From NCBI RefSeq assembly GCF_003334355.1, contig NZ_QOWP01000017.1: 64,000 nucleotides of DNA; one strand, 5' to 3'. Positions 18,912-53,697 of this stretch are shown in pieces; position 1 is the first letter of the stretch; each line of letters begins with the position of its first letter. Made by a program: the position numbers and the translations under genes. This DNA comes from Escherichia coli. Its GTDB lineage: Bacteria; Pseudomonadota; Gammaproteobacteria; Enterobacterales; Enterobacteriaceae. Below the pieces are notes generated by a model that worked only from the letters and a program-made list of their open reading frames with translations, had not been told where the DNA came from and did not search any database.

Positions 18912-21900
18912 ATGCAGGTCAGCAGAAGGCAGTTCTTTAAGATCTGCGCTGGCGGTATGGCAGGCACCACGGCAGCGGCACTGGGTTTTGCACCCAGCGT
19001 AGCACTCGCGGAAACCCGGCAGTATAAACTGCTGCGCACCCGCGAAACCCGTAATACCTGCACCTATTGTTCCGTAGGCTGTGGGCTGTTGATGTACAGC
19101 CTCGGTGACGGAGCAAAAAACGCCAAAGCATCTATCTTCCATATCGAAGGCGATCCGGATCACCCGGTCAACCGCGGTGCACTTTGTCCGAAAGGCGCTG
19201 GCCTGGTGGATTTCATCCACTCCGAAAGCCGTCTGAAGTTTCCGGAATACCGTGCGCCAGGTTCTGATAAATGGCAGCAAATCAGTTGGGAAGAGGCGTT
19301 TGATCGCATCGCCAAACTGATGAAAGAAGACCGCGATGCTAACTACATTGCGCAAAACGCCGAAGGCGTGACTGTTAACCGCTGGCTCTCCACCGGGATG
19401 CTGTGTGCTTCCGCGTCGAGTAACGAAACCGGCTATTTAACGCAAAAATTCTCCCGCGCGCTGGGTATGCTCGCGGTCGACAACCAGGCGCGTGTCTGAC
19501 ACGGACCAACGGTAGCAAGTCTTGCTCCAACATTTGGTCGCGGTGCGATGACCAACCACTGGGTCGACATCAAGAACGCCAACCTCGTCGTGGTGATGGG
19601 CGGTAACGCCGCTGAAGCTCACCCGGTCGGGTTCCGCTGGGCGATGGAAGCCAAAATTCACAACGGCGCGAAGCTGATTGTGATCGATCCTCGCTTTACG
19701 CGTACGGCGGCGGTAGCTGACTACTATGCCCCTATTCGTTCCGGTACTGACATTGCTTTCCTGTCAGGCGTATTGCTGTACCTGCTGAACAATGAAAAAT
19801 TCAACCGCGAATACACCGAAGCCTATACCAACGCCAGCCTGATCGTGCGTGAGGATTACGGCTTTGAAGATGGCCTGTTCACCGGCTACGACGCGGAAAA
19901 ACGCAAGTACGATAAATCCTCCTGGACTTATGAACTGGACGAAAACGGCTTCGCCAAACGCGATACCACGCTGCAACATCCGCGCTGCGTGTGGAACTTG
20001 CTGAAACAGCACGTTTCCCGCTACACGCCAGATGTGGTTGAAAACATCTGTGGTACGCCAAAAGACGCGTTCCTGAAAGTCTGCGAATACATCGCAGAAA
20101 CCAGTGCTCACGATAAAACTGCCTCGTTCCTGTATGCCCTCGGCTGGACGCAACACTCCGTTGGTGCGCAAAACATTCGTACGATGGCGATGATCCAGCT
20201 GCTGCTCGGCAATATGGGGATGGCAGGCGGCGGCGTTAACGCCCTGCGCGGTCACTCCAATATTCAGGGGCTGACGGACCTGGGGCTGCTGTCGCAGAGC
20301 CTGCCAGGTTACATGACGCTGCCAAGCGAGAAGCAGACCGATCTGCAAACCTACCTTACCGCCAACACGCCAAAACCGCTGCTGGAAGGCCAGGTAAACT
20401 ACTGGGGCAACTACCCGAAATTCTTCGTCTCTATGATGAAGGCCTTCTTTGGTGATAAAGCGACGGCGGAAAATAGCTGGGGCTTTGACTGGTTGCCGAA
20501 GTGGGATAAAGGCTACGACGTCCTGCAATACTTCGAGATGATGAAAGAGGGCAAGGTCAATGGCTATATCTGCCAGGGCTTTAACCCTGTTGCCTCATTC
20601 CCGAACAAAAACAAAGTGATCGGTTGTCTGTCGAAACTGAAGTTCCTCGTCACCATCGACCCACTGAACACTGAAACCTCTAACTTCTGGCAGAACCACG
20701 GTGAGCTGAACGAAGTTGACTCGTCGAAGATCCAGACCGAAGTGTTCCGTCTGCCATCGACCTGCTTCGCGGAAGAGAACGGTTCTATCGTTAACTCAGG
20801 TCGCTGGTTACAGTGGCACTGGAAAGGTGCGGACGCCCCGGGGATTGCGCTGACTGACGGCGAGATCCTCTCCGGTATCTTCCTGCGCTTGCGCAAGATG
20901 TATGCCGAACAGGGTGGCGCGAACCCGGACCAGGTGCTGAACATGACATGGAACTACGCCATTCCGCATGAGCCATCTTCAGAAGAAGTGGCGATGGAGA
21001 GCAACGGTAAGGCGCTGGCCGATATTACCGATCCGGCAACCGGTGCGGTTATCGTCAAGAAAGGCCAACAACTTAGTTCGTTCGCCCAATTGCGCGATGA
21101 CGGTACAACCTCCTGTGGCTGCTGGATTTTCGCCGGTAGCTGGACGCCGGAAGGCAACCAGATGGCACGCCGTGATAACGCCGATCCGTCTGGCCTCGGT
21201 AACACGCTGGGCTGGGCATGGGCATGGCCGCTTAACCGCCGCATTCTGTATAACCGCGCCTCCGCAGATCCGCAGGGTAACCCGTGGGATCCGAAGCGTC
21301 AGTTGCTGAAATGGGACGGCACTAAGTGGACCGGCTGGGATATTCCGGACTACAGCGCAGCGCCTCCGGGTAGCGGCGTCGGGCCGTTTATCATGCAGCA
21401 GGAAGGCATGGGGCGTCTGTTTGCCCTCGATAAGATGGCGGAAGGTCCGTTCCCGGAACACTACGAGCCGTTTGAAACGCCGCTGGGAACTAACCCGCTG
21501 CATCCAAACGTTATCTCGAACCCGGCTGCACGTATCTTTAAAGACGACGCCGAAGCATTGGGTAAAGCCGATAAGTTCCCGTATGTCGGAACCACCTATC
21601 GTCTGACCGAGCACTTCCACTACTGGACCAAACACGCGCTGTTGAACGCGATTTTGCAGCCAGAGCAGTTTGTGGAAATCGGGGAGTCGCTGGCGAATAA
21701 ACTTGGCATTGCCCAGGGCGATACCGTGAAAGTCTCCTCCAACCGTGGCTATATCAAAGCCAAAGCGGTGGTGACCAAACGTATTCGCACGCTGAAAGCG
21801 AACGGCAAAGATATCGATACCATCGGTATTCCGATTCACTGGGGCTATGAAGGCGTAGCTAAAAAAGGCTTTATTGCCAATACTTTAACGCCATTCGTTG

Positions 21901-21962
21901 GTGATGCGAACACGCAGACGCCGGAGTTTAAGTCCTTCCTTGTGAATGTGGAAAAGGTGTAA
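18912..21962 (+). CDS. fdoG: Formate dehydrogenase-O major subunit (selenoprotein; in-frame UGA = Sec at 19497..19499)
   Basis: Track ORFs 18912..19499 and 19548..21962 are in the same frame, separated only by TGA; combined 1016 aa; Tat signal (RRQFFK), Fe-S cysteine cluster, molybdopterin-oxidoreductase domain. Confidence 0.95.
19497..19560 (+). other. Selenocysteine recoding site: UGA codon plus downstream SECIS-like hairpin
   Basis: TGA followed by cacggaccaacggtagcaagtcttgctcc...; apical stem agcaag/cttgct resembles the fdhF SECIS layout. Confidence 0.75.
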
Positions 21963-24764: not shown

Positions 24765-24983
24765 TTACCATTCCTCGCGCAGCTTACGCTGATATTCGAC
24801 ACCATCTTCCTCACACCCTTGCCAGATGCCAGGAACACTGGTTCTTGCTGTTTGCGATTGATTTATCAGGTATTGATCTACCGCTTCCCTTAATAGGTCC
24901 GCACGAGGAAGATTACGCTGCACCTCGAGATCATCAAGTTGCTTAATCACCTCATTCGATAAATCGAGTAAAATTCTGCCCAT
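24765..24983 (-). CDS. yiiF: Small ribbon-helix-helix (CopG/Arc-like) protein
   Basis: 72 aa [39 protein letters not shown]...; RHH signature (beta-strand then LxREAVxxYL). Confidence 0.8.
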
Positions 24984-25224
24984 ATCTATACCTGCCAGAG
25001 AGTTCATAAATATCTCGCCAATATCATTTTTGAATCTATGGAGAGAAAAGTACCCTTGCCGAATCTTTAAAGAAAGCTCATTTACGCATCATTTTTTATT
25101 TTTGCGAGGCGTTTTCCAGATATGATGTAACAGTTGCAGTTATTATAAGTTCAAGTAAAACAGCCTTGTATTAATACCAGAATAAGGGCATCTGTTTTTT
25201 ATATTCAAGAATGAAAAATTTTTG

Positions 25225-25443
25225 TCATTCCTTATGCTCCTTACACTGATCATCAACACCAACTACCTCCCCCTTTTGCCTGCCTCCCTTTGCTTTACGC
25301 ACCGGGAATTGCTGACGTTCCAGATATTGCTCTACCGCTTCGCGTAAAATTGCAGATCGTGAAACCTTACGCCAGCCCCGAAGCTTGTTCAGCCGTTTAA
25401 TTGCCTCTTCTGATAAATGAAGAAAAACCGTATTCATCGCCAT
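25225..25443 (-). CDS. yiiE: Small ribbon-helix-helix (CopG/Arc-like) protein, paralog of yiiF
   Basis: 72 aa MAMNTVFLHLSEEAIKRLNKLRGWRKVSRSAILREAVEQYL...; same fold signature as the neighbour. Confidence 0.8.
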   Translation of the reverse strand: MAMNTVFLHLSEEAIKRLNKLRGWRKVSRSAILREAVEQYLERQQFPVRKAKGGRQKGEVVGVDDQCKEHKE

Positions 25444-35457: not shown

Positions 35458-37494
35458 ATGGATACGCCACGTCCACAGTTATTAGATTTTCAATTTCATC
35501 AGAATAACGACAGTTTTACCCTACATTTTCAACAACGTCTTATTTTAACCCATAGCAAAGATAATCCTTGTTTATGGATTGGCTCAGGTATAGCGGATAT
35601 CGATATGTTCCGCGGTAATTTCAGCATTAAAGATAAACTACAGGAGAAAATTGCGCTTACCGACGCCATCGTCAGCCAGTCACCGGATGGTTGGTTAATT
35701 CATTTCAGCCGTGGTTCTGACATTAGCGCCACGCTGAATATCTCTGCCGACGATCAGGGGCGTTTATTGCTGGAACTACAAAACGACAACCTTAACCACA
35801 ACCGTATCTGGCTGCGCCTTGCCGCTCAACCAGAGGACCATATCTACGGCTGCGGCGAACAGTTTTCCTACTTCGATCTGCGTGGCAAACCGTTCCCGCT
35901 ATGGACCAGTGAACAAGGCGTTGGTCGCAACAAACAAACCTATGTCACCTGGCAGGCCGACTGCAAAGAAAATGCGGGCGGCGACTATTACTGGACTTTC
36001 TTCCCACAGCCTACGTTTGTCAGCACGCAGAAGTATTACTGCCATGTTGATAACAGTTGCTATATGAACTTCGACTTTAGTGCCCCGGAATACCATGAAC
36101 TGGCGCTGTGGGAAGACAAAGCAACGCTGCGTTTTGAATGTGCTGACACATACATTTCCCTGCTGGAAAAATTAACCGCCCTGCTGGGACGCCAGCCAGA
36201 ACTGCCCGACTGGATTTATGACGGAGTAACGCTCGGCATTCAGGGCGGGACGGAAGTGTGCCAGAAGAAACTGGACACCATGCGTAACGCGGGCGTGAAG
36301 GTCAACGGCATCTGGGCGCAGGACTGGTCCGGTATTCGTATGACCTCTTTTGGCAAACGCGTGATGTGGAACTGGAAGTGGAACAGCGAAAACTACCCGC
36401 AACTGGATTCACGCATTAAGCAGTGGAATCAGGAGGGCGTGCAGTTCCTGGCCTATATCAACCCGTATGTTGCCAGCGATAAAGATCTCTGCGAAGAAGC
36501 GGCACAACACGGCTATCTGGCAAAAGATGCCTCTGGCGGTGACTATCTGGTGGAGTTTGGCGAGTTTTACGGCGGCGTTGTCGATCTCACTAATCCAGAA
36601 GCCTACGCCTGGTTCAAGGAAGTGATCAAAAAGAACATGATTGAACTCGGCTGCGGCGGCTGGATGGCTGACTTCGGCGAGTATCTGCCCACCGACACGT
36701 ACCTGCATAACGGCGTCAGTGCCGAAATTATGCATAACGCCTGGCCTGCGCTGTGGGCGAAGTGTAACTACGAAGCCCTTGAAGAAACGGGCAAGCTCGG
36801 CGAGATCCTTTTCTTTATGCGCGCCGGTTCTACCGGTAGCCAGAAATACTCCACCATGATGTGGGCGGGCGACCAGAACGTCGACTGGAGTCTCGACGAT
36901 GGCCTGGCGTCGGTTGTCCCGGCGGCGCTGTCGCTGGCAATGACCGGACATGGCCTGCACCACAGCGACATTGGCGGTTACACCACCCTGTTTGAGATGA
37001 AGCGCAGCAAAGAGCTGCTGCTGCGCTGGTGCGATTTCAGCGCCTTCACGCCGATGATGCGCACCCACGAAGGTAACCGTCCTGGCGACAACTGGCAGTT
37101 TGACGGCGACGCAGAAACCATCGCCCATTTCGCCCGTATGACCACCGTCTTCACCACCCTGAAACCTTACCTGAAAGAGGCCGTCGCGCTGAATGCGAAG
37201 TCCGGCCTGCCGGTTATGCGCCCGCTGTTCCTGCATTACGAAGACGATGCGCACACTTACACCCTGAAATATCAGTACCTGTTAGGTCGCGACATTCTGG
37301 TCGCTCCGGTGCATGAAGAAGGCCGTAGCGACTGGACGCTCTATCTGCCGGAGGATAACTGGGTCCACGCCTGGACGGGTGAAGCGTTCCGGGGCGGGGA
37401 AGTTACCGTTAATGCGCCCATCGGCAAGCCGCCGGTCTTTTATCGCGCCGATAGCGAATGGGCGGCACTGTTCGCGTCGTTAAAAAGCATCTAA
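35458..37494 (+). CDS. yihQ: Sulfoquinovosidase (GH31 alpha-glucosidase family)
   Basis: 678-aa ORF with GH31 catalytic region (WMADFGE, GDQNVDW). Confidence 0.9.
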   Translation: MDTPRPQLLDFQFHQNNDSFTLHFQQRLILTHSKDNPCLWIGSGIADIDMFRGNFSIKDKLQEKIALTDAIVSQSPDGWLIHFSRGSDISATLNISADDQGRLLLELQNDNLNHNRIWLRLAAQPEDHIYGCGEQFSYFDLRGKPFPLWTSEQGVGRNKQTYVTWQADCKENAGGDYYWTFFPQPTFVSTQKYYCHVDNSCYMNFDFSAPEYHELALWEDKATLRFECADTYISLLEKLTALLGRQPELPDWIYDGVTLGIQGGTEVCQKKLDTMRNAGVKVNGIWAQDWSGIRMTSFGKRVMWNWKWNSENYPQLDSRIKQWNQEGVQFLAYINPYVASDKDLCEEAAQHGYLAKDASGGDYLVEFGEFYGGVVDLTNPEAYAWFKEVIKKNMIELGCGGWMADFGEYLPTDTYLHNGVSAEIMHNAWPALWAKCNYEALEETGKLGEILFFMRAGSTGSQKYSTMMWAGDQNVDWSLDDGLASVVPAALSLAMTGHGLHHSDIGGYTTLFEMKRSKELLLRWCDFSAFTPMMRTHEGNRPGDNWQFDGDAETIAHFARMTTVFTTLKPYLKEAVALNAKSGLPVMRPLFLHYEDDAHTYTLKYQYLLGRDILVAPVHEEGRSDWTLYLPEDNWVHAWTGEAFRGGEVTVNAPIGKPPVFYRADSEWAALFASLKSI

Positions 37495-37539
37495 TCACAT
37501 CCGCCCGTGGGGAAACTCATGGGCAAAGGGAGAACATCG

Positions 37540-38924
37540 ATGAGTCACATCACAACGGAAGATCCAGCAACTTTACGCCTGCCCTTTAAAGAGAAACTCT
37601 CTTACGGTATTGGCGACCTGGCCTCTAACATCCTGCTGGATATCGGTACGCTTTATCTTTTGAAGTTTTATACCGACGTTCTGGGGCTGCCAGGCACCTA
37701 TGGCGGCATTATCTTTTTGATTTCAAAATTCTTTACTGCGTTTACCGATATGGGTACCGGCATTATGTTGGATTCCCGACGCAAGATCGGTCCAAAAGGT
37801 AAGTTCCGTCCTTTTATTCTGTATTCGTCATTCCCGGTCACCTTACTGGCGATCGCCAACTTTGTCGGCACACCGTTTGATGTCACCGGTAAAACGGTGA
37901 TGGCCACTATTCTGTTTATGCTTTACGGACTGTTTTTCAGCATGATGAACTGCTCCTACGGCGCAATGGTTCCCGCTATCACCAAAAACCCCAACGAACG
38001 CGCCTCACTGGCGGCATGGCGTCAGGGCGGCGCTACGCTGGGCCTGCTGCTGTGCACGGTGGGATTCGTGCCAGTTATGAATCTTATCGAAGGTAATCAG
38101 CAACTTGGCTATATCTTCGCCGCCACGCTGTTTTCACTGTTTGGCCTGCTGTTTATGTGGATCTGCTACTCGGGCGTGAAAGAGCGTTATGTCGAAACCC
38201 AGCCTGCTAATCCGGCGCAAAAGCCGGGCCTGCTGCAATCTTTCCGCGCAATTGCGGGTAACCGCCCGCTGTTCATTCTGTGCATTGCCAACCTCTGCAC
38301 TTTAGGGGCGTTTAACGTCAAGCTCGCCATCCAGGTCTATTACACCCAGTACGTGCTTAACGATCCCATCCTTTGTCGTATATGGGATTTTTCAGCATGG
38401 GCTGTATTTTCATCGGCGTATTCCTGATGCCTGCCTCAGTCAGACGTTTTGGCAAGAAGAAAGTTTATATCGGCGGCCTGCTGATTTGGGTGCTGGGCGA
38501 TCTGCTCAACTATTTCTTCGGCGGCGGTTCGGTCAGCTTCGTGGCGTTCTCCTGCCTGGCGTTCTTTGGCTCAGCGTTTGTTAACAGCCTGAACTGGGCG
38601 CTGGTTTCCGACACCGTCGAGTACGGCGAGTGGCGCACCGGCGTGCGTTCGGAAGGAACGGTCTACACCGGTTTTACCTTCTTTCGCAAAGTGTCTCAGG
38701 CGCTGGCTGGTTTCTTCCCCGGCTGGATGCTGACGCAAATTGGCTATGTGCCGAACGTCGCACAGGCTGACCACACCATTGAAGGGTTACGCCAGTTGAT
38801 CTTCATCTACCCAAGCGCACTGGCGGTAGTCACCATTGTGGCGATGGGTTGCTTCTACAGCCTGAACGAGAAGATGTATGTCCGCATTGTGGAAGAGATA
38901 GAAGCCCGTAAACGCACGGCGTAA
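37540..38924 (+). pseudogene. yihP: GPH-family transporter YihP disrupted by a -1 frameshift
   Basis: Track ORFs 37507..38427 and 38373..38924 are in different frames; restoring one T near 38365 gives a continuous 461-codon frame (the recalled YihP length) and restores LNDPILLSYMGFFSMGC, which parallels yihO LNDINLLSWMGFFSMGC. Confidence 0.8.
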
Positions 38925-38966
38925 TAATAATAAACGACGCCCTGCGGGGCGTTATAAGGAGTGATT

Positions 38967-40370
38967 ATGTCTGACCATAATCCACTGACATTAAAACTGA
39001 ATCTGCGGGAAAAAATCTCCTATGGTATGGGCGACGTCGGTTCGAATTTAATGCTCTGCATCGGTACTCTGTATCTCCTCAAATTTTATACCGATGAATT
39101 AGGGATGCCTGCTTACTATGGCGGGATTATCTTTCTGGTGGCGAAGTTTTTTACCGCGTTTACCGATATGCTCACCGGATTTTTACTCGACTCGCGGAAA
39201 AATATTGGGCCTAAAGGCAAATTTCGTCCCTTTATTTTATATGCAGCGGTTCCGGCGGCGTTAATTGCAACGCTCCAGTTTATCGCCACCACCTTTTGTT
39301 TGCCGGTTAAAACGACGATTGCCACCGCGCTGTTTATGATGTTTGGACTTTCATACAGTCTGATGAACTGCTCGTATGGTGCGATGATCCCGGCAATTAC
39401 CAAAAACCCGAATGAGCGCGCGCAGCTCGCGGCTTACCGCCAGGGTGGTGCAACCATAGGGCTATTGATTTGTACCGTGGCGTTTATTCCGTTGCAGTCG
39501 CTTTTTTCTGACTCAACCGTCGGTTATGCCTGTGCGGCACTTATGTTCTCCATTGGCGGCTTTATTTTTATGATGCTGTGCTACAGAGGCGTCAAAGAGC
39601 ATTATGTGGACACAACGCCAACCGGACATAAAGCCAGTATTCTCAAATCATTTTGCGCGATATTTCGGAATCCGCCATTGCTGGTTTTATGCATTGCTAA
39701 CTTGTGTACCCTGGCGGCATTTAATATCAAACTGGCGATTCAGGTCTATTACACCCAGTATGTGCTGAATGATATTAATTTATTGTCGTGGATGGGATTC
39801 TTCAGTATGGGATGCATCCTCATCGGCGTATTACTGGTGCCATTAACTGTAAAATGTTTTGGTAAATAACAGGTTTATCTGGCTGGCATGGTGCTGTGGG
39901 CGGTGGGTGATATACTGAATTATTTCTGGGGAAGTAACTCTTTCACTTTCGTCATGTTCTCTTGTGTCGCCTTTTTTGGCACGGCCTTTGTAAACAGCCT
40001 GAACTGGGCACTGGTACCAGATACCGTAGATTACGGTGAATGGAAAACCGGTATTCGTGCCGAAGGTTCTGTTTATACCGGTTATACCTTCTTTCGTAAA
40101 ATTTCTGCCGCACTTGCTGGCTTCTTGCCAGGCATTATGCTGACGCAAATTGGTTATGTTCCCAACATCGCGCAAAGCGATGCGACATTACAGGGTTTGC
40201 GTCAGCTCATTTTTATCTGGCCTTGTGCACTGGCAATTATTGCTGCATTGACGATGGGATTCTTTTACACACTCAATGAAAAACGGTTTGCATTGATTAT
40301 TGAGGAAATCAACCAACGCAAAAATAAAGAGATGGCGACAGAAGAAAAAACGGCTTCCGTAACGTTATAA
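38967..40370 (+). pseudogene. yihO: GPH-family sulfoquinovose transporter YihO interrupted by an in-frame TAA
   Basis: Track ORFs 38961..39869 and 39888..40370 are in the same frame; the full span is 467 codons (the recalled YihO length) except for TAA at 39867..39869 (tttggtaaaTAAcaggtttat; paralog yihP has GKKK at the same position). Confidence 0.8.
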
Positions 40371-40437
40371 ATGTCAATAGCCGCTATTTCCATCCTGGTG
40401 GGTGGCGGCCTCCCTACGTTTAAAAAATGGACTTATT

Positions 40438-41130
40438 ATGAAAAAGATTAATGCAATAATTTTATTATCTTCTCTGACCTCTGCCTCGGTATTTGCTGGC
40501 GCATACGTCGAAAACAGGGAGGCATATAATCTTGCCTCCGATCAGGGCGAGGTTATGCTACGTGTGGGTTATAACTTCGATATGGGCGCGGGTATTATGT
40601 TAACCAATACCTACAACTTTCAGCGAGAAGATGAACTAAAACATGGATATAACGAAATTGAAGGCTGGTATCCGTTATTTAAACCAACCGATAAATTAAC
40701 CATCCAGCCCGGTGGCTTAATTAATGATAAGAGTATCGGTTCGGGTGGTGCAGTGTATCTGGACGTCAACTATAAATTTGTACCATGGTTTAATCTGACA
40801 GTACGAAATCGCTATAACCATAATAACTATAGTTCAACAGATTTGAGCGGGGAACTGGATAATAATGACACCTATGAAATTGGCACCTACTGGAATTTTA
40901 AAATCACCGATAAATTTTCCTATACATTTGAGCCACATTACTTCATGCGAGTGAATGACTTTAATAGTAGCAACGGGAAAGATCATCATTGGGAAATCAC
41001 TAACACCTTCCGTTACCGTATTAATGAACACTGGCTCCCTTATTTCGAATTGCGCTGGTTAGACCGCAACGTCGAACCGTACCACCGCGAGCAAAACCAG
41101 ATCCGTATCGGGACGAAGTATTTCTTCTGA
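40438..41130 (+). CDS. ompL: Outer-membrane porin OmpL
   Basis: 230 aa from MKKINAIILLSSLTSASVFA (signal peptide), beta-barrel-like alternating pattern, C-terminal F. Confidence 0.9.
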   Translation: MKKINAIILLSSLTSASVFAGAYVENREAYNLASDQGEVMLRVGYNFDMGAGIMLTNTYNFQREDELKHGYNEIEGWYPLFKPTDKLTIQPGGLINDKSIGSGGAVYLDVNYKFVPWFNLTVRNRYNHNNYSSTDLSGELDNNDTYEIGTYWNFKITDKFSYTFEPHYFMRVNDFNSSNGKDHHWEITNTFRYRINEHWLPYFELRWLDRNVEPYHREQNQIRIGTKYFF

Positions 41131-41138
41131 TGTGAAAC

Positions 41139-41216
<78 letters not shown>

Positions 41217-41220
41217 TTAA

Positions 41221-42486
41221 TTAAGCTTCAGCCGCCAGCATCTCTTTCTTACGTTGGCTAATACGCTTAACCAGCATTACGGAAACCACCGCACCACTGA
41301 ATGCGAAGCAGGCCATAATGCCAAACACGATTTTGTAGCCAATAATCCCCGGATTTAAATCCAGAATGTAGCCATACAGACTGAAGCAGAACATCGCCGG
41401 AGCGTAACCAATAAAGCTACCCAACGCCATCGCCGCACCTGTTTTATTTTCAGCAATTTTTGCTTCGCCGATAGGTGCAAAAAATACGGCTCGCTGTGTA
41501 AAGACTATCGCGCCAAAGCCCAGCGTACATGCCATCCCTAAATAGACCGGCATACTTTCGTGCGGCAGCATAATCAACAGTACGAGCGCAGCGGTACTAA
41601 TGATAAAGGTGTAGCATAGATATTTACTTGGCGATTTCAGGATCTTATCTGAAATCATGCCACCAATCGGTCCACCAATCATTTTCAGACAGTATTGGTT
41701 AATGATGCCGTAAGCCCCCACCAGCGCAACGGGCAATAGATAGATGTTTTTCAGGAATGGAATGAAGAATGTCAGGCCACAGTAAACCGCGTAAACGAAG
41801 AAGACGTTAAAAGCGATAAGCCAGATAGTTTTGTCTTTCAGCACCGAGGTCATACTGGTGTTTTTCGATGCTCCGTCTTCTTTTTTCACCTCAACGGACG
41901 GTGCCTCTTCTTTGTCATTCAGAACAAAGAAAATGATAATGCCTACGGCAATCACAATAAGGGAATAGAACCAGATGCCTGCTTTAAAACCCAATAAGCC
42001 ACTGCCAAACCAGGTAAATACTGCCAACGCAGAAAATGCCACCACGGTATCGACAATGCCACGCCCTGTTTCGAAGAAGCCAAACAACCGACCTTGTTGT
42101 TCGCTATTGCCCAATCGACTTACCGACTTGAGCAAGACCGGCCAGTTCATCATGTCGCAAGTAACGCCAAATAGCACCCAGACAAAGAGGATGCCCCAAT
42201 ACCCCGGCATTGTCGTCAAATAAACACCCAGTAATCCTGTCGCAATGAGTGAGAATGACATGGTGTATCTGCGCGGTAGTTTATCGGCAAAATAAATAGA
42301 CAGAAAAAAACCCACTGTCGTGACAAATGAGTTTACCGACATAGCATTACCAATTTGACCATTGGTCAAATGGAAATATTCCTGCATCGGGATATAAAAC
42401 GCATCTTTCAGCGACGGTAATTTATAAATTGTACCGCCACACAATGTTAATAGACTAAATAACGCCCATTTCTTTTTCGTGAGCAT
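41221..42486 (-). CDS. yihN: MFS transporter
   Basis: 421-aa polytopic ORF, matches YihN. Confidence 0.9.
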   Translation of the reverse strand: MLTKKKWALFSLLTLCGGTIYKLPSLKDAFYIPMQEYFHLTNGQIGNAMSVNSFVTTVGFFLSIYFADKLPRRYTMSFSLIATGLLGVYLTTMPGYWGILFVWVLFGVTCDMMNWPVLLKSVSRLGNSEQQGRLFGFFETGRGIVDTVVAFSALAVFTWFGSGLLGFKAGIWFYSLIVIAVGIIIFFVLNDKEEAPSVEVKKEDGASKNTSMTSVLKDKTIWLIAFNVFFVYAVYCGLTFFIPFLKNIYLLPVALVGAYGIINQYCLKMIGGPIGGMISDKILKSPSKYLCYTFIISTAALVLLIMLPHESMPVYLGMACTLGFGAIVFTQRAVFFAPIGEAKIAENKTGAAMALGSFIGYAPAMFCFSLYGYILDLNPGIIGYKIVFGIMACFAFSGAVVSVMLVKRISQRKKEMLAAEA

Positions 42487-53452: not shown

Positions 53453-53697
53453 AAGAAAAAAGGCGACAGATTACTCTGTCGCCTTTTTTCCTGACTCATA
53501 ACCCTTAACGGGTCTTACAATCCTTGCAGGCCGCCAACACACCCTGTTTTTCCTTTAGCCGGAACAATCCGTGTTGATTCCATTTCCGTTTAATTACGTC
53601 TCCGGACGTTTGTCTTCCTGACAATCCTCTGTCTTCGCCTCCTGGCGCTCCTGACCCTCATCCTGAGTCATTGTTCCTGTTAGCGTCCTCGCTCTAT
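53453..53697 (-). ncRNA. csrC: CsrC small RNA (CsrA-sequestering)
   Basis: Minus-strand sequence begins atagagcgaggacgctaacaggaacaatgactcaggatgagggtcaggagcgccaggaggcgaagacagaggattgtcaggaagac..., has multiple GGA motifs and ends in terminator ggcgacagagtaatctgtcgcc plus U-run; matches CsrC as I recall it. Confidence 0.9.

Follow-up and report, generated by a model that had tools for sequence, protein, structure and literature searches.

The sulfo-EMP (yih) cassette of Escherichia coli K-12 contains the transporter gene yihO (b3876), whose product is the proposed importer of sulfoquinovose and which has AAA at codon 301. A K-12 ΔyihO mutant does not grow on sulfoquinovose, according to PMC6278857, which cites Denger 2014 for the result. 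Transport by YihO has never been shown biochemically and the protein is described as uncharacterised (bioRxiv 10.1101/2021.11.10.468170); the second transporter of the cassette, YihP, is also uncharacterised, and its role as an exporter is given as 'most likely' (PMC6278857; bioRxiv 10.1101/2021.11.10.468170). The name 'sulfoquinovose importer', which the first-pass annotation of the sequence studied here had attached to yihO, is based on the growth phenotype of the K-12 mutant and not on transport assays, according to the same two sources.

The cassette is also known to vary in gene content. Published long (ompL-yihOPQRSTUVW) and short (yihTUVW) forms occur in E. coli and Shigella (Kaznadzey et al. 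2025, PMC12608037), and the words 'pseudogene' and 'frameshift' are absent from that paper. Strain Nissle 1917, which is without yihO, is reported there to match the growth of K-12 on sulfoquinovose, so the physiological cost of losing yihO may be small or nil. Among proteins of solved structure, the nearest relative of YihO is the Salmonella melibiose permease MelB (PDB 4M64), a member of the same GPH family; because it is a distant paralog with a different substrate, it is used below solely to place a truncation in the fold.

Here we analyze a stretch of E. coli DNA of 64,000 bases (the window) in which both transporter genes of the cassette are broken. Like the long/short polymorphism, the window would represent a natural loss of transport and of the early steps of sulfoquinovose use. 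It differs from the short cassette in that the long form is retained and the two transporters have been hit by point lesions. Where K-12 yihO has a lysine codon, the window has a stop that ends the protein after helix 8.

Results

An ochre stop at codon 301 of yihO

The yihO pseudogene occupies 38967..40370 on the plus strand and is flanked by yihP and ompL, as it is in MG1655. It stands in the orthologous position, with the order csqR-yihVUTSRQPO-ompL being the same in MG1655, OW1E2 and PSS-12, and encodes a protein of the GPH/MFS_2 family, both fragments of which match Pfam PF13347. With the annotated ATG at 38967 as its start, yihO runs to 467 codons and a terminator, and translation of 38961..40370 revealed a single stop within a frame that is open elsewhere. 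The letters at 39860-39869 read tggtaaaTAA, which puts the premature ochre codon at 39867..39869 (plus strand), codon 301 of the gene (K301*). These results confirm two statements of the first-pass annotation, namely that yihO is cut by an in-frame TAA at this site and that its frame is otherwise continuous for 467 codons. What is absent is an uninterrupted frame for all 12 helices, as four helices lie beyond the stop.

The substitution responsible, A to T at 39867, altered the fourth base of what was originally a run of six A (A6; GGT AAA AAA CAG). Window and K-12 YihO are identical at 465 of 467 codons and differ solely by K301* and by A18S, a common allele that is also present in OW1E2 and PSS-12. 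At the DNA level, identity to the closest intact yihO is 99.9%; the two differ at exactly one of 1,521 bases, so the stop is not a chance pattern.

To establish the ancestral state, we compared the site base by base with four other genomes. Position 39867 is A, and the codon AAA (Lys), in the outgroups MG1655, OW1E2 and LT883142 and in the sister strain PSS-12; the stop has thus replaced a codon that is sense in every one of them, and the MG1655 reference reads AAA rather than TAA at 39867..39869. It had been argued from the paralog that the ancestral codon was AAA and that one A-to-T change created an ochre stop about 300 residues into the protein. Both points are borne out by the outgroups and the sister strain, and at the aligned site MG1655 YihP indeed has FGKKKVY, where YihO has FGKKQVY.

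The TAA allele is rare among available genomes. A 1,521-bp yihO query matched 3,891 of the 5,426 complete RefSeq genomes of E. coli, with best hits carrying at least one mismatch. An 81-mer centered on the T, searched by megablast, was identical to none of the 2,735 complete genomes that it matched (best hit 98.8%, that is, one mismatch); these are 2,735 of the 3,891 genomes bearing yihO, and a TAA within a more diverged sequence would escape this search. The possibility that the allele circulates in metagenomes was rejected, as an exact 35-mer scan of metagenome contigs returned nothing. Programmed recoding of the stop finds no footing either: the codon is TAA and not TGA, and the 2,735 matched genomes include none identical across the site.

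The same haplotype in several public datasets

We looked up the exact 300-aa truncated product (38967..39869, plus strand; helices 1-8) and found it recorded in Logan assemblies of public read sets. One Logan contig of 6,907 bp (L008), which derives from ERR4578542 and three more runs, is found letter for letter in the window (34259..41165) and contains both the yihP frameshift described below and the yihO TAA. A second contig (L025, from SRR3823860) is likewise an exact substring with both lesions. In the NCBI draft GCA_003334355.1, contig QOWP01000017.1 (L023) is 100.000% identical to the window over 24978..42219 (17,242 bp), with both lesions present and no protein called for either yihP or yihO. 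All three sequences thus reproduce the window, including the TAA. Support for the allele consists of assemblies of five or more public runs, and one isolate may have been sequenced repeatedly among them. A single error is a very improbable source of an allele that turns up in several datasets whose accessions belong to different series.

One further contig was considered as a possible carrier and proved uninformative. This 1,917-bp sequence (L009, from SRR10330952) has an intact yihP, ends at yihO codon 300 and stops exactly before the variable base; the assembly graph of that sample could have broken there because the site is polymorphic or of low complexity.

Predicted consequences for the transporter

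YihO residues 11-439 align to Salmonella MelB (E = 3e-40). In this alignment, MelB positions 295 and 296, just past helix 8, face K300 and K301, and the stop falls at the basic pair that follows the helix. Hydropathy shows a strongly hydrophobic segment at 277-295, right before the stop, and more segments after it. A single-sequence AlphaFold2 model of low confidence (pLDDT 47.6), from which helix segmentation alone was used, has a helix at 270-298, a break at 299 and further helices at 300-321, 325-348, 366-395 and 406-465. Together, these analyses predict that truncated YihO would lack the last four of 12 helices, with the stop in the loop that joins helices 8 and 9 on the cytoplasmic side. 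For a 12-helix GPH/MFS fold, it is safe to infer that such a product is inactive.

Downstream of the stop, a remnant open reading frame of 160 aa (39888..40370, plus strand), corresponding to helices 9-12, begins with an ATG 18 nt past the TAA. It is probably translated little or not at all: predicted anti-Shine-Dalgarno pairing is -3.2 kcal/mol at ATG 39888 versus -8.8 at the yihO start and -8.4 at the yihP start, which does not amount to an efficient start of its own for a C-terminal half of a split permease. The stop could also lower expression of the intact porin gene ompL (40438..41130, plus strand), located 3' of yihO, through polarity.

yihP was broken before yihO

The gene for the putative DHPS exporter, yihP (37540..38924, plus strand), is a pseudogene as well. 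Relative to intact copies, a G is missing between 38372 and 38373, which turns codons 278-279 from CTG TTG into CTT TGT; the first stop in the new frame is the TGA at 38425-38427 (codon 296). In PSS-12, PGAP flags yihP as 'frameshifted', and an exact 81-mer around the deletion was found in 1 of 3,882 complete genomes, namely PSS-12. The yihP frameshift that had been noted on first inspection is therefore real. The window and PSS-12 also have in common the substitution A96S in yihP (37825, G to T).

We used the 295-aa YihP fragment as a look-up key for other carriers of the deletion. The frameshift occurs together with an intact 467-aa yihO in PSS-12, ERR10677920, GCA_003293365.1 and SRR24680064, and together with a yihO split into 300 and 160 aa in SRR3823860 and look-alikes. 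The TAA was seen only in genomes that also carry the yihP frameshift. It is thus nested within the group that has the frameshift, and the break in yihP is the older of the two. As had been supposed, the lesions arose independently: they differ in mutation type and in site, and relatives with an intact yihO share the yihP lesion.

Rest of the cassette and lineage of the window

Among 55 complete coding sequences checked, yihP and yihO are the only ones broken. The remainder of the sulfoglycolysis cassette (29280..37494), comprising csqR and yihV on the minus strand together with yihU, yihT, yihS, yihR and yihQ, has all frames open, as does ompL, and the earlier claim that the catabolic enzymes are spared is correct. 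Seven of these genes (csqR, yihV, yihU, yihT, yihR, yihQ and ompL) show zero nucleotide differences between the window and PSS-12, and for these seven, unlike yihS, the protein accessions of PSS-12 are those of K-12. The only other internal stop is the expected selenocysteine TGA at codon 196 of fdoG (18912..21962; named fdnG in reference records). Two pseudogene fragments, at 25820..25936 and 53505..53671, are flagged by PGAP in PSS-12 as 'incomplete' and 'frameshifted; internal stop'; because OW1E2 and LT883142 have the same flags, these are species-wide remnants and not specific to the lineage.

The window is collinear with PSS-12 (NZ_AP027697.1), an isolate from human faeces in Ecuador, with 14 SNPs and no indels over 64,000 bases. 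Compared with MG1655, it has 43 mismatches and 1 indel in 13.5 kb (0.3% divergence). With OW1E2, LT883142 and MG1655 as outgroups for polarity, 8 of the 14 SNPs arose on the window branch: four synonymous changes, two intergenic changes, yihS G358S and yihO K301*. Six of these eight are transitions, a natural spectrum. A laboratory or K-12 origin was rejected in view of the 0.3% distance from MG1655 as against 14 SNPs per 64 kb from a faecal isolate. By this comparison, the window is evidently from a wild E. coli lineage and not from a K-12 laboratory derivative, so that relaxed selection in a laboratory lineage, one of the causes proposed for the double lesion, finds no support.

The two differences in yihS, at 33765 and 34049, give each sister lineage one missense change since the split: G358S (34049) in the window and L263Q (33765, codon 263) in PSS-12. 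We considered G358S as a sign of decay in the enzymes and rejected it, because strains at about 1% divergence have the identical G358S protein together with intact yihP and yihO; the change looks like a recurrent, tolerated polymorphism. In all, three of the four protein-altering SNPs relative to PSS-12 fall in the yih cassette compared with none of the ten silent ones (Fisher p = 0.011), a post hoc test on tiny counts. The clustering hints at relaxed constraint, and the hint is weakened by the G358S result.

Loss of yihO in other E. coli

The gene is absent from 1,535 of the 5,426 complete genomes (28%), which agrees with the long and short cassette forms described in PMC12608037. We also sampled ten loci at which yihO is disrupted, and in each the gene is broken at or next to the A6 tract (nt 898-903). 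Lesions at these loci (L010-L019) comprise -1A, +1A, +G, an IS1 insertion at nt 897 and -1A at nt 885, in unrelated backgrounds; some of them (L017 and L019) look like error-prone assemblies and may be homopolymer errors. The 160-aa remnant frame is called in at least 106 contigs of yihO-disrupted assemblies. These other nulls resemble the window in the site affected, the A6 tract at codons 300-301, and in the remnant called, but they are frameshifts or an IS1 insertion with yihP intact, whereas the window has a base substitution and is also null for yihP. Given the 28% of complete genomes without yihO and the other lineages in which the A6 tract is broken, the locus appears dispensable. A weaker possibility is that the tract is a mutational hotspot that repeatedly switches off sulfoquinovose import across lineages.

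Discussion

We consider it very probable that the window carries a genuine, recent loss-of-function allele of yihO, confined to a small wild lineage and acquired in a stepwise decay that followed the loss of yihP. A 1-bp deletion first inactivated yihP in an ancestral clade, after which, in a subclade, an A-to-T transversion converted Lys 301 from AAA to TAA. Translation would then halt between helices 8 and 9 and a working transporter could not form. The cassette would be decaying from its transporters, step by step, with the enzymes staying intact. Loss of transport, with lost or impaired growth on sulfoquinovose, would be expected by analogy with the K-12 ΔyihO phenotype. Selection on a pathway that was already compromised or out of use may have been relaxed, allowing the second hit to spread. 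Three causes had been offered initially for the double lesion: selection against sulfosugar transport, relaxed selection in a laboratory lineage, and artefact. Relaxed or negative selection, acting in a wild lineage, is what remains of these, and relaxed selection is most likely.

That the true genome reads AAA, the T being an error of sequencing or assembly or else an edited base, is the least probable of the readings we weighed. The change does lie inside an A6 homopolymer at which other assemblies show probable homopolymer errors (L017 and L019 are full of indels), and the allele is in no complete RefSeq genome among those matched by the 81-mer. Homopolymer errors are typically indels, however, and this lesion is a substitution; the same haplotype emerges from five or more public runs, whose accessions are of different series, and from an NCBI draft; and the other 13 SNPs relative to PSS-12 are of natural spectrum. 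Artefact, as initially offered, is accordingly very unlikely. It is also highly improbable that the gene still works, whether through reading of the UAA by an ochre suppressor or as a split permease assembled from the 300-aa product and a re-initiated 160-aa one. Fragments of LacY, a related transporter, can assemble when co-expressed, and the split in yihO falls in a loop and not within a helix, with an in-frame ATG close behind the stop and a downstream frame that is exactly helices 9-12. A UAA followed by C is, moreover, among the weaker UAA contexts, which counts for read-through. Against this stand the weak ribosome-binding site before ATG 39888 and the stop's lack of conservation in other lineages (81-mer search, 2,735 genomes). 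We looked for a suppressor tRNA nearby and found no tRNA gene in the 64-kb window; ochre suppressors are hardly known outside laboratory strains. The frameshifts and the IS1 insertion by which other lineages break this site fit loss and not a selected split.

A different account of the order of events is that the second hit was adaptive: once YihP was lost, import through YihO would have become harmful as DHPS or sulfosugar phosphates accumulated, and a yihO null would have been positively selected. We regard this as unlikely, if less so than an artefact or a gene that still functions. The order is right, with an ancestral yihP frameshift and a nested yihO TAA, and, the selenocysteine TGA of fdoG aside, the only genes broken among the 55 complete coding sequences are two adjacent ones. 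The concentration of protein-altering SNPs in the cassette also points this way, but it is the post hoc statistic on tiny counts given above, and one of its three SNPs, G358S, is the change found in diverged strains with intact transporters. Furthermore, PSS-12 and other relatives persist with yihP broken and yihO intact, showing that the intermediate is viable, and the exporter role of YihP, on which the argument depends, is itself only 'most likely' (PMC6278857; bioRxiv 10.1101/2021.11.10.468170). The same sequence pattern is predicted by both scenarios. If the adaptive account were true, the locus would be a natural case of 'exporter first, importer second' shutdown of a pathway whose enzymes are untouched.

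Under stepwise decay with relaxed selection, the reading we prefer, the finding amounts to ordinary gene decay in a species that often loses the yihO locus. The allele predicts that its carriers do not import sulfoquinovose by the canonical route, which bears on the annotation and the metabolic models of gut E. coli. It also completes a natural allelic series, from both transporters intact to yihP broken to both broken, that could be used to test the roles assumed for YihP as the DHPS exporter and for YihO as the sole importer of sulfoquinovose, the latter being in question since Nissle 1917 was reported to grow without yihO (PMC12608037). Finally, the locus makes clear that decay of the yih cassette proceeds by point lesions in its transporters too, besides the published deletion from the long to the short form.
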